DNA of 64,000 nucleotides from Escherichia coli. Lineage in GTDB: Bacteria > Pseudomonadota > Gammaproteobacteria > Enterobacterales > Enterobacteriaceae. The translations under genes were made by a program, and so were the position numbers. Positions 60,714 through 64,000 of this stretch are shown one piece after another (the stretch's first letter is position 1; every line of letters starts with the position of its first letter). The notes under the pieces are model-generated. The model had not been told where the DNA came from. It did not search any database and saw only the letters and a program-made list of their open reading frames with translations. The DNA lies in assembly GCF_003334355.1 (NCBI RefSeq), contig NZ_QOWP01000019.1; one strand, given 5' to 3'.

Positions 60714-60785
60714 CACAACCTCGCACCAATTAACAGTGCAATAGTAAATGATTGTTAATTACAGTTATCTTAATTGTTTAAAAAA

Positions 60786-60801
60786 AGTGATTTTTATCAC
60801 A
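60786..60801. promoter_or_regulatory. CRP-like site aGTGA-N6-TCACA upstream of yqeF
   Basis: agtgatttttatcaca, centred about 80 bp upstream of the yqeF start codon. Confidence 0.4.
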
Positions 60802-60966
60802 AAGGAAATATGCCTGAGCAGTAGTCAGAGTCATAACTGGCACGTAAGGTTTGCAACCACTAACCCACCAATAGAGGGGTAGATAGGCGTTAATCTCCCA
60901 TACTTAACCTGGTTTATGGTAAATTGCCCTCCATTTTGTTTAATTTGTAGATGATACGTTCAGATA

Positions 60967-62196
60967 ATGTCTAATATTTGGTCTAAAGAAGAAACTCTGT
61001 GGAGTTTCGCGCTCTACGGCACAGCCGTTGGTGCAGGCACGCTCTTCCTTCCTATTCAGTTAGGTTCGGCAGGGGCTGTGGTCCTGTTTATTACTGCTCT
61101 GGTCGCCTGGCCTTTAACATATTGGCCACATAAAGCCTTATGCCAGTTCATCCTCTCATCGAAAACATCAGCAGGTGAAGGGATAACGGGCGCAGTAACA
61201 CACTACTATGGCAAGAAGATTGGTAATCTGATTACCACGCTGTACTTCATCGCCTTTTTTGTCGTCGTGTTGATATATGCAGTGGCAATTACCAACTCAC
61301 TTACGGAACAGCTGGCAAAGCATATGGTTATTGATCTTCGCATCCGTATGTTGGTGAGTCTGGGTGTTGTATTAATCCTGAATCTCATTTTTCTGATGGG
61401 ACGCCATGCAACCATTCGGGTAATGGGTTTTTTGGTATTCCCATTGATTGCCTATTTCTTATTTCTTTCCATTTACCTTGTCGGTAGTTGGCAACCTGAT
61501 CTATTAACGACCCAGGTAGAGTTCAATCAGAATACCCTTCACCAGATATGGATATCGATTCCCGTGATGGTTTTCGCCTTTAGCCATACGCCCATTATTT
61601 CTACGTTTGCCATAGACAGACGTGAAAAATATGGCGAACACGCTATGGATAAATGCAAAAAAATTATGAAAGTCGCTTATCTCATCATCTGCATAAGTGT
61701 ACTGTTCTTTGTCTTTAGCTGCCTGCTTTCTATTCCACCTTCGTATATTGAAGCGGCTAAAGAAGAAGGGGTCACCATTTTATCGGCGCTTTCTATGCTG
61801 CCGAACGCCCCAGCATGGCTGTCAATTTCCGGGATTATTGTCGCAGTAGTTGCGATGTCGAAATCATTCCTGGGTACGTACTTTGGCGTTATTGAAGGTG
61901 CCACGGAGGTCGTCAAAACAACACTACAGCAGGTTGGTGTAAAGAAAAGTCGTGCATTTAACCGCGCACTATCAATTATGTTGGTATCGCTGATCACCTT
62001 CATTGTTTGTTGCATTAACCCGAACGCGATTTCGATGATTTACGCGATCAGCGGCCCGCTCATTGCCATGATACTTTTCATCATGCCTACGTTGTCAACG
62101 TATCTGATCCCGGCGCTTAAACCCTGGCGTTCCATCGGAAATCTGATTACGCTGATCGTGGGTATCCTGTGCGTATCGGTAATGTTCTTTAGCTGA
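60967..62196 (+). CDS. yqeG: HAAAP-family transporter YqeG (paralog of SdaC)
   Basis: 409-aa polytopic ORF sharing conserved blocks with SdaC (IPVMVFAFSHTPIISTFA, LFFVFSC). Confidence 0.9.
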   Translation: MSNIWSKEETLWSFALYGTAVGAGTLFLPIQLGSAGAVVLFITALVAWPLTYWPHKALCQFILSSKTSAGEGITGAVTHYYGKKIGNLITTLYFIAFFVVVLIYAVAITNSLTEQLAKHMVIDLRIRMLVSLGVVLILNLIFLMGRHATIRVMGFLVFPLIAYFLFLSIYLVGSWQPDLLTTQVEFNQNTLHQIWISIPVMVFAFSHTPIISTFAIDRREKYGEHAMDKCKKIMKVAYLIICISVLFFVFSCLLSIPPSYIEAAKEEGVTILSALSMLPNAPAWLSISGIIVAVVAMSKSFLGTYFGVIEGATEVVKTTLQQVGVKKSRAFNRALSIMLVSLITFIVCCINPNAISMIYAISGPLIAMILFIMPTLSTYLIPALKPWRSIGNLITLIVGILCVSVMFFS

Positions 62197-62206
62197 TATC
62201 CATTGT

Positions 62207-62250
62207 GAATGGTTCAAAATTGCTACAATTTTGAACCATTCCAGTTTTCA
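62207..62250 (+). terminator. 16-bp perfect inverted repeat plus T-run after yqeG
   Basis: gaatggttcaaaattg-cta-caattttgaaccattc followed by cagttttca. Confidence 0.7.
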
Positions 62251-62655
62251 TAATGTTCATTCGTTATTATTCCGCACTATCACTTCCCTCATCATATCCT
62301 AGTATTATCAGTTAGTTAAACACACAAAGAGATCTGAACATCTTATATAAGACTATTTAAGATGCATAACTTAGATTCGCAAGATATCTTCTGGTCATTC
62401 AAAAACAATTTGCGATATAGATATTCTCATACCATGAGATAGTTATCTGAACCACCCTCAACCAGGTAAGATTAAATCAGTGAAACATAATCATATTTAA
62501 TAACGAGAAATGCATTTTAAAATGTCTTAATCAGAATTATAGCAAATACAGATTAATCGCAATTTTTCCCAGCAAAATTACAAAATCATGGTGTATTGAC
62601 ATCATCAATCACCAATGAAATTATGCAATTATATACGGATAGGGAGGTTCTTAAC

Positions 62656-63288
62656 ATGGGGCTTTGTAGTCGTTATAAAAGTCTTACATGCAATAGTTGC
62701 TCAATGCATTGCCAAATAATGCCAGAAGAGTCACCGCGTTTGCAGTACTGCGCAAACTCGTGTTTTTGTATGTGGCCCGAAGAAAGTTCATATTTTAATC
62801 GTGGTGTGGTAGAAGGTATCTTAACAAAAAACCACAATGCGAGATTAAGCGGATATATTTTTGTCGATTTTTCAGTAAGTTTTTTACGTCTATTCCTTGA
62901 AAAAGACTGGATTGACTATCTTGCAAGTACTGACATGGGGATTGTTTTAGTCAGCGACCGCAATATGCAATCGTTAGCTAATTACTGGCGAAAACACAAC
63001 TCAGCAATATCTGCTGTCATATATAATGATGATGGTCTTGATGTTGCCAATGAAAAGATCAGACAACTATTTATTGGTCGTTATTTATCATTTACCAGAG
63101 GTAACACATTAACTCAGATGGAATTCACCATAATGGGGTATATGGTTTCTGGTTATAATCCATATCAGATTGCTGAAGTTCTGGATATGGATATCCGTAG
63201 CATCTACGCGTACAAGCAACGAATCGAAAAGAGAATGGGTGGTAAAATAAACGAATTATTTATTCGTTCACATTCGGTCCAACATTGA
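62656..63288 (+). CDS. yqeH: LuxR/GerE-type regulator YqeH
   Basis: ATG at 62656 preceded by agggagg gives a 210-aa product; C-terminal HTH-like region; AT-rich codon usage. Confidence 0.8.
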   Translation: MGLCSRYKSLTCNSCSMHCQIMPEESPRLQYCANSCFCMWPEESSYFNRGVVEGILTKNHNARLSGYIFVDFSVSFLRLFLEKDWIDYLASTDMGIVLVSDRNMQSLANYWRKHNSAISAVIYNDDGLDVANEKIRQLFIGRYLSFTRGNTLTQMEFTIMGYMVSGYNPYQIAEVLDMDIRSIYAYKQRIEKRMGGKINELFIRSHSVQH

Positions 63289-63621
63289 TACTCAACGACC
63301 AGCCAGAATCATACTCTGTTTATACGGGCATTTATTGAAATGTCCGTATTTTATAAATAGGCCGTCCCCTCAAGAGTAAACACCATAGTATTTAAAACCA
63401 TCACACGAAAAATTCAGAAGCATTACGAAATATGAATTTACAAACAATAGTGGCATAAATGTTAACCATGTTAATTTACGTAAAGTTTTACGTTGCAACA
63501 TTAAAGCCTCATTTCAATCATCATGATAAATATAAAATTAATATATATTTATGCCGTAAATACCAATATACTTAGCAAACTATGTGATCTCCATTTCGAT
63601 TGATTTAGTGTTTATTGACGT

Positions 63622-63825
63622 ATGTACTGGATTATTAACGATAATATCGAGTTCTGGCCTGAGCACCGAAAATTAATATCGGTACATAACGCCGATCTTA
63701 ACGTCGTTCTGACAACGCCAGCCAGTCGATGTTTATCACTTCTACTTGAAGCTTTTCCTGATGTGGTTGCACAACAAGATTTTTTCACCAGAGTCTGGGA
63801 AGAAGAAGGTATGCGTGTGCGGTGA
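63622..63825 (+). pseudogene. yqeI: yqeI (ToxR/CadC-like regulator) truncated by IS1 after codon 66
   Basis: ORF starts MYWIINDNIEFWPEHRKL and runs into the IS1 left end; the stop TGA at 63823-63825 is inside the IS1 terminal repeat. Confidence 0.75.
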
Positions 63826-64000
63826 TGCTGCCAACTTACTGATTTAGTGTATGATGGTGTTTTTGAGGTGCTCCAGTGGCTTCTGTTTCTATCAGCTGTC
63901 CCTCCTGTTCAGCTACTGACGGGGTGGTGCGTAACGGCAAAAGCACTGCCGGACATCAGCGCTATCTCTGCTCTCACTGCCGTAAAACATGGCAACTGCA
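63821..64000 (+). mobile_element. IS1: IS1 insertion sequence, left end (continues beyond the window)
   Basis: ggtgatgctgccaacttactgat terminal inverted repeat followed by the insA start, matching IS1 from recall over all 180 nt. Confidence 0.95.
63876..64000 (+). CDS. insA: IS1 InsA (partial, runs off the window end)
   Basis: GTG at IS1 position 56 followed by codons for [23 protein letters not shown]... Confidence 0.9.

Follow-up and report, generated by a model that had tools for sequence, protein, structure and literature searches.

Left margin of the ETT2 island in an Escherichia coli contig: a two-step fall in GC content beyond yqeF

ETT2 and the systems it resembles

The ETT2 locus of E. 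coli was published as a low-GC, horizontally acquired island that extends from ECs3703 (yqeH) to ECs3737 over 29.9 kb, adjoins glyU, and has 36.9% GC when compared to 50.8% for the chromosome (PMC3977695). It is located between yqeG and the tRNA gene (PMC7058095). In K-12, the fragment from yqeG to ygeI was shown to form H-NS-dependent hairpin domains both in vivo and in vitro, the expression of ygeH was increased approximately 150-fold in the hns stpA double mutant, and a sharp GC step was proposed as the edge of the silenced domain (PMC12460168). The existence of ETT2, its low GC content, its position between yqeG and glyU, and its silencing by H-NS are already published.

The window considered here is the whole analyzed stretch of 64,000 nt of E. 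coli DNA. It is not K-12 itself; an O16:H48 strain, which has the K-12 serotype, is about 98.8% identical in this region. Similar to the published island, the locus is flanked by yqeG, yqeH and yqeI come first, the GC content is low (35% here and 36.9% in the published island), and there is attrition by IS elements and deletions. In contrast to it, the window covers only the first 1.45 kb, IS1 interrupts yqeI, and this strain may have lost the T3SS genes. The H-NS/StpA-silenced CHIN and CHID structures on horizontally transferred genes were described for the same locus with the same sharp GC step, the K-12 fragment being the test case (PMC12460168); if the remainder of ETT2 was removed by IS1, this strain has a much shorter AT-rich domain than K-12. 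Among the sequence measures connected with H-NS, the density of W-runs was informative, whereas the counts of the high-affinity motif TCGATAAATT were too small to inform. ETT2 also resembles tRNA-associated islands of the integrase type, such as the glyU islet in PSS-12, in being adjacent to a tRNA gene, atypical in composition, and variable among strains. However, it ends 150 bp from glyU, not inside it, and has neither a flanking direct repeat nor a partial tRNA copy. No integrase is annotated in ETT2 of the related strain JNE181771.

The reading favored here, to which a probability of about 0.85 is assigned, is that the window closes at the left margin of ETT2, a degenerate island for the second type III secretion system of E. 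coli bordered by the tRNA-Gly gene glyU, and that the GC drop combines a native step with a foreign-type step starting at 62,371. The features on which the argument depends are as follows.

60,717-60,966, no strand: yqeF-yqeG divergent spacer, 250 bp, 35.6% GC; holds the raw GC change point
60,967-62,196, plus strand: yqeG, HAAAP-type serine/threonine-transporter-like permease, 409 aa; GC 45.0%, GC1 0.459, GC3s 0.474
62,207-62,251, plus strand: stem-loop (62,207-62,241) followed by a CAGTTTTCAT tail, probable intrinsic terminator for yqeG, located before the junction, on the core side
62,370-62,371, no strand: ETT2 presence/absence junction, the last base common with ETT2-free E. coli followed by the first island-only base
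62,371-62,655, plus strand: island-side leader upstream of yqeH, 30.5% GC, with a predicted promoter and ribosome-binding site
62,656-63,288, plus strand: yqeH, the first ETT2 gene (ECs3703 in Sakai), LuxR/EcpR-like helix-turn-helix regulator; GC 37.4%, GC3s 0.291
63,289-63,621, no strand: yqeH-yqeI spacer, 30.6% GC
63,622-63,820, plus strand: yqeI (ECs3704), truncated to its first 199 nt, winged-helix ToxR/CadC-like regulator; GC3s 0.328
63,821-64,000, plus strand: IS1 left inverted repeat and first 180 bp, inserted in yqeI and running off the window end

The first GC step and the ancestry of yqeG

The initial annotation reported a shift to AT-rich sequence from about 60.7 kb and set the edge of the island there, with yqeG inside it. 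The shift itself is confirmed. Mean GC is 0.515 over 1-60,716, compared to 0.396 over 60,717-64,000 and 0.389 over 60,717-63,820 (a fall from 51.5% to 38.9%), and none of the 577 upstream sliding windows of 3,104 bp falls below 0.463 GC (mean 0.517, sd 0.020). The maximum-likelihood single change point in a scan of 40,000-63,820 is 60,728, with a log-likelihood gain of 82.5, compared to the claimed 60,717. The low-GC tract, which had been drawn to 64,000, holds up to 63,820; the last 180 bases are IS1 with 51% GC and do not belong to the island. The intergenic stretches described as AT-rich are so, with 30.7% GC at 62,197-62,655 and 30.6% at 63,289-63,621. The low-GC segment is itself divided by a second split at 62,180 (0.435 GC to the left, 0.347 to the right), resulting in a first step formed by the yqeF-yqeG spacer and yqeG, with 43.5% GC, and a second step from about 62,180, with 34.7% GC.

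The raw change point and the low GC of yqeG (0.450, z = -2.7) are consistent with an acquired AT-rich island that starts at about 60.7 kb and includes yqeG, and in one review yqeF and yqeG are what some E. albertii strains have "left in ETT2" (PMC11068852). This reading is nevertheless largely refuted and is considered very improbable. The segment 60,717-62,370, comprising spacer, yqeG, and hairpin, was found in 5,419 of the 5,426 complete E. coli genomes (99.9%), and yqeG is retained in all ETT2-free genomes examined. The kduD-kduI-yqeF-yqeG order is conserved across Enterobacteriaceae (Citrobacter, Salmonella, Enterobacter, Kluyvera, and Klebsiella), with yqeF upstream of the yqeG orthologues at almost every locus. 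The orthologues follow the species tree in their identities (Citrobacter and Salmonella, 90-92%; Enterobacter and Kluyvera, 84-87%; Klebsiella and Raoultella, 79-82%), and their GC content tracks that of the host (0.50-0.60 in most genera outside Escherichia and Salmonella). The published ETT2 also starts at yqeH (PMC3977695). On this comparative evidence, yqeG is an old, vertically inherited enterobacterial core gene outside the variable island, and because of this the island start is to be placed at 62,371 and not at 60.7 kb.

The composition of yqeG was compared with a codon reference consisting of the 49 core CDSs of the window, mapped from the annotation. Its total GC is the second lowest among the 50 window genes and its GC1 is strongly lowered (z = -2.9), whereas synonymous usage stays within the core range: GC3s has z = -1.1 (rank 8 of the 49 core genes) and the codon log-likelihood z = -1.7. 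Its observed GC is 0.024 below that expected from its amino acids (-0.024, z = -1.1), compared to -0.036 for yqeF and -0.030 for fucP. The low GC of yqeG results mostly from its hydrophobic amino-acid composition, with very low GC1, in addition to synonymous usage at the weak end of normal. Alignment to TIGR00814, the profile of the HAAAP serine/threonine transporter subfamily (E = 6.9e-155, positions 1-397 of 397 aligned), shows YqeG to be clearly a relative, but its 516 bits are just below the curated cut-off of 525.8. It is also worth noticing that yqeG in Escherichia is 5-7 GC points below its flanks, compared to 0-3 points in most other genera, so that amino-acid composition does not account for everything. 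The GC content of the yqeF-yqeG spacer is ordinary for a promoter-bearing spacer of this window, where the other spacers have 27.6-41%.

The strong hairpin noted at 62,207-62,241 is borne out by folding, which gives a perfect 16-bp stem with a 3-nt loop and -22.5 kcal/mol (z = -5.1); none of 200 shuffles folds as stably. It starts 10 nt past the yqeG stop codon, is followed by the tail CAGUUUUCAU, and was flagged by a terminator scan. Compensatory A:U to G:C and U:A to A:U changes are found in its stem among Escherichia lineages, and in the stem alignment 93.7% of cells pair, compared to 21-52% when the 3' partners are slid. In nearly all other genera, yqeG is likewise followed at this position by a strong hairpin, the sequence of which is unrelated. 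The hairpin is similar to intrinsic terminators in its stable stem-loop just past the stop codon, its T-containing tail, and the preservation of structure, not sequence, across genera; it differs from typical ones in an unusually long AT-rich stem (5 G:C of 16 pairs) and a short T-run (TTTT). Most likely, judging from the sequence, it is the terminator of yqeG, a feature of the core side and not of the island. An att site of the island and a REP-like element were also considered for it and rejected, since it lies on the conserved side and keeps its place behind yqeG in genera that lack ETT2. A scan of 60,400-64,000 against Rfam at E <= 1 gave no match.

The junction at 62,370 and 62,371

Alignment with an ETT2-free strain places the boundary between 62,370 and 62,371, 174 bp after the yqeG stop codon. 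A 240-bp probe for the empty site matches 1,218 genomes without a break, with base 62,370 joined straight to the glyU flank, and in ETT2-bearing genomes it breaks exactly at probe bases 120/121. Since base 62,370 is fused to the glyU flank in these 1,218 genomes, the presence/absence boundary is 62,370|62,371, which agrees with the published definition of ETT2 with yqeH as the first gene. The sequence beyond it, 62,371-63,820 (yqeH and 5' yqeI, 35.2% GC), is accessory, being present in 4,118 of the 5,426 genomes and absent from 24%. The junction differs in a second lineage that lacks ETT2, Escherichia sp. MOD1-EC7003, where about 48 nt of island-side sequence are retained.

The junction at 62,370 may be where a deletion ended, and not where the island originally inserted. 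It was considered whether ETT2 inserted right after the yqeG terminator, at about 62,250, so that 62,252-62,370 would be island as well and 62,370 would mark the limit of a later deletion. The 174 bp that separate the junction from the yqeG stop codon (62,197-62,370) are as AT-rich as the island (31% GC) and equal it in W-run density (11.5 per kb), although intergenic DNA is AT-rich anyway. The presence of ETT2 in E. albertii and at the loci of other Escherichia species suggests acquisition before E. coli diversified (PMC4700944), and the different junction of an independent ETT2-free lineage is clearly a deletion. There are no att-like repeats at 62,370; a search of the island ends for att-like direct or inverted repeats or a glyU fragment found only chance 7-9-mers, the longest shared word being 8 nt. 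On the other hand, the 174 bp are kept at 92-94% identity in all ETT2-free genomes examined. The ancestral state is unreadable, because other genera carry unrelated sequence after yqeG. An insertion at about 62,250 is considered a possible but rather unlikely alternative to a margin at 62,371.

The second step: yqeH, yqeI, and the IS1 end

The leader of yqeH contains a promoter-like site at 62,596-62,624 (TTGACA-17-AATTAT with TG), and the gene is preceded by a ribosome-binding site, GGGAGG, at 62,643-62,648. The proposal that yqeH and yqeI begin the ETT2 island is supported, as this DNA is compositionally foreign and accessory and corresponds to the published low-GC island by glyU. The annotated genes of the related strain match yqeH and 5' yqeI at about 99% identity, and in related strains this sequence extends as far as glyU, which lies beyond this window, and includes SPI-1-like T3SS genes (epr, epa, and eiv). 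AT-rich codons had been claimed for yqeG, yqeH, and yqeI alike. Against the 49 core genes, the codon usage of yqeH (GC3s z = -4.6) and of the yqeI fragment (z = -3.9) is atypical as claimed, and that of yqeG not clearly so; taken as a set, yqeH and yqeI are clearly distinguishable from core genes, whereas yqeG is indistinguishable in codon usage and distinguishable in total GC. The deviation from the GC expected given the amino acids is -0.084 for yqeH (z = -4.5) and -0.068 for the yqeI fragment, and for all ETT2 genes of JNE181771, whose island has 34.7% GC, it is -0.06 to -0.11. The GC3s of ETT2 genes is 0.23-0.35, 4-5 sd from core genes, and beyond glyU, in actS and xdhA, the observed-minus-expected GC is back to -0.01 to -0.02.

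The abrupt return to core values past glyU, together with these GC3s values, does not support the idea that AT-richness reflects a local mutational or regulatory bias of a poorly expressed native region and not foreign origin. In its favor, yqeG shows that a native gene at this locus can be shifted towards AT, as is the case in Escherichia as well as Salmonella arizonae and diarizonae. However, 24% of E. coli genomes lack yqeH, yqeI, and the remaining island genes, and the island encodes SPI-1-like T3SS genes, which makes an explanation by native bias hardly credible.

The IS1 end was recognized by the GGTGATGCTGCCAACTTACTGAT terminal inverted repeat, which starts at 63,821, and by the insA reading frame; annotated IS1A and IS1B copies match 63,821-64,000 at 99-100%. 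The exact yqeI::IS1 junction is present in only 2 of the 5,426 genomes according to a 60-bp probe, which resolved the junction, whereas 501-bp and 86-bp probes merged neighboring non-identical IS1 insertions. PSS-12, the one fully matching genome with the identical IS1 junction, has lost the T3SS genes (epr, epa, and eiv). By analogy, IS1 probably deleted the rest of ETT2 in this strain.

In Citrobacter amalonaticus and C. sedlakii, the low-GC DNA that separates yqeG from an rcnA-like gene encodes a YqeH-like regulator (78% aa identity) together with a distant YqeI/YqeJ-like pair, and the 6 kb covered contain no T3SS gene. It may be speculated that yqeH and the yqeI/yqeJ-like pair form an older islet apart from the T3SS cluster, present 3' of yqeG since before Escherichia diverged, which is considered unlikely. 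If this is true, then ETT2 would be composite, and what textbooks give as its left boundary would be that of a regulator islet.

In the favored two-step reading, the first step (60,717-62,196) is native DNA, consisting of the AT-rich divergent promoter spacer and yqeG, the transcription of which most likely stops at the hairpin. The second step is foreign-type DNA of about 35% GC, which by sequence comparison starts at 62,371 and comprises the AT-rich leader, yqeH, the AT-rich spacer, and yqeI. By analogy with the published K-12 work, H-NS/StpA filaments may form on this AT-rich tract and fold it as a silenced hairpin domain, which may be bounded by the sharp GC step. IS1 has inserted after nt 199 of yqeI, and the remainder of ETT2 was probably deleted, as in PSS-12. 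The value of the analysis is corrective: judged by the raw GC change point, the edge of the island came to lie 1.65 kb too far to the left. GC is lowered there by a native membrane-protein gene and an ordinary promoter spacer, for causes unrelated to horizontal transfer, and codon-position analysis together with presence/absence mapping shifts the boundary to 62,370|62,371.

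Compositional shift at the right end of the window

The last 8 kb of the window contain araE, kduD, kduI, yqeF, yqeG, yqeH, and the 5' part of yqeI, into which IS1 is inserted past nucleotide 199. The features concerned are the following:

59,532-60,713, minus strand: yqeF
60,967-62,196, plus strand: yqeG
62,656-63,288, plus strand: yqeH
63,622-63,820: first 199 nt of yqeI
63,821 to the window end (64,000): left end of IS1

The regulator YqeH is LuxR/EcpR-like, and YqeI weakly resembles CadC/ToxR. Upstream of yqeH lie a promoter-like site (TTGACA-17-AATTAT with TG, 62,596-62,624) and a GGGAGG ribosome-binding site. 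An O16:H48 (K-12-serotype) strain is 98.8% identical to 59,000-63,821, and some commensal strains reach 99.9-100%; the window is E. coli, but not K-12.

The initial annotation proposed that an AT-rich island starts at about 60.7 kb, in the yqeF-yqeG spacer. The compositional shift is real and far beyond chance: GC content is 51.5% in 1-60,716 vs 38.9% in 60,717-63,820, the lowest 3.1-kb stretch elsewhere in the window never falls below 46.3%, and the single best change point over 40,000-63,820 lies at 60,728 (log-likelihood gain 82.5). The drop occurs in two steps, with a second split at 62,180 inside the low-GC part (43.5% to 34.7%). Runs of at least eight A/T bases number 2.4 per kb in the core and 4.1 across yqeG with its upstream spacer, then 11.5-11.7 once the yqeG stop is passed. 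The two spacers flanking yqeH, described earlier as AT-rich, indeed have 30.7% and 30.6% GC. The yqeF-yqeG spacer has 35.6% GC, within the usual range for the window's divergent promoter spacers (27.6-41%). GC rises slightly in the last 500-bp bin because IS1 (51% GC) lies there. Outside this region, the lowest GC in the window, about 44.5%, is found at 8-10 kb in the fuc locus. This locus is strain-variable (window 8996-10909 vs 3697-10522 of L004, a locus of strain JNE181771): the window has the order fucA, fucP, fucI, and JNE181771 carries a LacI-family regulator, an FGGY kinase, and a sugar ABC transporter cluster in place of fucP.

Position of the ETT2 edge

Among 5,426 complete E. coli genomes, 60,717-62,370 was found in 5,419 and 62,371-63,820 in 4,118. 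In the ETT2-free strain FDAARGOS_1293, the match to the window reaches 62,370 and runs on into sequence which, in strains that carry ETT2, lies at the island's far end, 150 bp from the tRNA-Gly gene glyU. A probe of 240 bp with this empty junction at its centre is unbroken in 1,218 genomes and split precisely at its midpoint in ETT2-bearing ones. These comparisons together place the presence/absence boundary at 62,370/62,371, 174 bp beyond the stop codon of yqeG. The published limits of ETT2 fit this position: the island is defined as ECs3703 (yqeH) to ECs3737, 29.9 kb adjoining glyU, with 36.9% GC vs 50.8% for the chromosome (PMC3977695), and its left neighbour is given as yqeG, its right one as the tRNA gene (PMC7058095). 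The early reading of an island edge was therefore right in kind, since this is the edge of ETT2, but misplaced by 1.65 kb, as foreign-type DNA starts at 62,371. In JNE181771 (locus L005, 12,372-30,903), the island is 18.5 kb long with 34.7% GC. This strain is also annotated with three tandem initiator-type tRNA-Met genes (L004 22338-22635); the window has a single one (22725-22801) and is about 220 bp shorter there.

Neither direct repeats nor a partial glyU copy were found at the island ends. In Escherichia sp. MOD1-EC7003 (L006 7400-7520), ETT2 is absent with a junction unlike that at 62,370: some 48 nt from the island side (window 62,371-62,419) are retained before the glyU flank, thus ETT2 was deleted there. 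This independent deletion shows that ETT2 absence can be a secondary loss. ETT2 also occurs in E. albertii, which is taken as acquisition before the E. albertii/E. coli split (PMC4700944); the proposal of Ren et al., cited through PMC7058095, was instead that phylogroup B2 never had ETT2. The 62,370 junction could therefore itself mark where a deletion ended, in which case ETT2 may first have inserted at any point from the terminator to 62,370; we regard this as possible, although rather unlikely.

Attrition of the island is also seen around IS1. The exact yqeI::IS1 junction occurs in 2 of the 5,426 genomes, PSS-12 (100% identity) and ET474 (98%). PSS-12 is 99.86% identical to the window across 9.2 kb; the far side of its IS1 abuts the glyU-proximal flank, therefore the remaining ETT2 has been deleted. 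Beyond this flank are a partial copy of glyU and a small islet that bears an integrase; glyU thus doubles as an integrase attachment site of the classical kind, independent of ETT2. The islet (L086 9800-15460) encodes an integrase, a DUF4145 protein, IS5, and a KilA-N protein, with the partial glyU copy on its far side.

For the island side, one study of K-12 reported that the yqeG-to-ygeI fragment folds into chromosomal hairpins that depend on H-NS, both in vivo and in vitro, and that ygeH goes up about 150-fold when hns and stpA are both mutated; it proposed that sharp GC steps set domain boundaries (PMC12460168).

yqeG and the hairpin that follows it

Codon-position composition, with 49 core genes annotated in the window as reference (deficit: GC deficit given amino acids)
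yqeG: GC 0.450; GC1 0.459 (z -2.9, lowest of all); GC3s 0.474 (z -1.1, rank 8 of 49); deficit -0.024 (z -1.1)
yqeH: GC 0.374; GC1 0.417 (z -3.8); GC3s 0.291 (z -4.6); deficit -0.084 (z -4.5)
yqeI fragment: GC 0.418; GC1 0.552 (z -0.9); GC3s 0.328 (z -3.9); deficit -0.068 (z -3.6)
ETT2 genes of the related strain JNE181771 (L005): GC 0.32-0.41; GC3s 0.23-0.35; deficit -0.06 to -0.11
actS, xdhA beyond glyU (L005): GC 0.51-0.53; GC3s 0.48-0.51; deficit -0.02 to -0.01

The GC expected from YqeG amino acids alone is 0.474 vs a core mean of 0.526, thus the AT-richness of yqeG mostly reflects hydrophobic-permease composition, not foreign codon usage. The core neighbour yqeF (-0.036) and fucP (-0.030) have larger deficits than yqeG.

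In a scan of YqeG orthologues with one genome per species, identity was 90-92% in Citrobacter and Salmonella arizonae and diarizonae, 84-87% in Enterobacter, Kluyvera, Leclercia, and Lelliottia, and 79-82% in Klebsiella and Raoultella, following the species-tree order in parallel to YqeF. Nearly all of these loci have yqeF upstream of yqeG, and many also contain kduD and kduI. Aside from Escherichia and Salmonella, most genera have a yqeG GC of 0.50-0.60, within 0-3 points of the flanking DNA. The species-tree ranking, yqeF synteny, and host-like GC speak against an older acquisition of yqeG. In Escherichia and S. arizonae and diarizonae (L007, L008, L085, L010, L013), yqeG is 5-7 GC points under its flanks, a gap not explained by amino-acid composition.

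The Escherichia yqeF-yqeG interval is a spacer of only 250 bp (window 60717-60966). In Citrobacter werkmanii (L016 4417-5858), the two genes are separated by a LysR-family regulator and a PACE efflux transporter, and most loci of Citrobacter, Enterobacter, Kluyvera, and Klebsiella show a similar-sized gap (~1.6 kb). Directly downstream of yqeG, the C. amalonaticus/C. sedlakii group has low-GC DNA with a YqeH-like regulator (78% amino-acid identity; L011 7260-9815 of C. amalonaticus, also L009, L012, L015) and a distant YqeI/YqeJ-like pair; an rcnA-like gene and a fimbrial subunit-like gene follow, and no type III secretion genes were seen within 6 kb.

The strong hairpin noticed at 62,207-62,241 is present, with a perfect 16-bp stem, a 3-nt loop, and -22.5 kcal/mol (z = -5.1), on the conserved side of the 62,370/62,371 junction. 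Across six lineages of Escherichia, pairing holds for 93.7% of stem cells vs 21-52% when the 3' partners are slid. Double compensatory changes occur at two stem positions: G:C replaces A:U in E. albertii and B2-type E. coli, and A:U replaces U:A in the loci of two divergent Escherichia species (L007, L008). In nearly all other genera, a strong hairpin follows the yqeG stop by 10-30 nt; its sequence is unrelated and usually GC-rich, with clear T-runs in several. No Rfam family matched in the region. The best reading is a predicted intrinsic terminator of yqeG, which would shield the core gene from the island.

Everything essential on the ETT2 edge is already published. The attribution of yqeG to the island does not hold, given its presence in nearly all genomes, its codon usage, and its orthologues: yqeG is native, as is its putative terminator, and the foreign-type DNA that varies among strains begins at 62,371.
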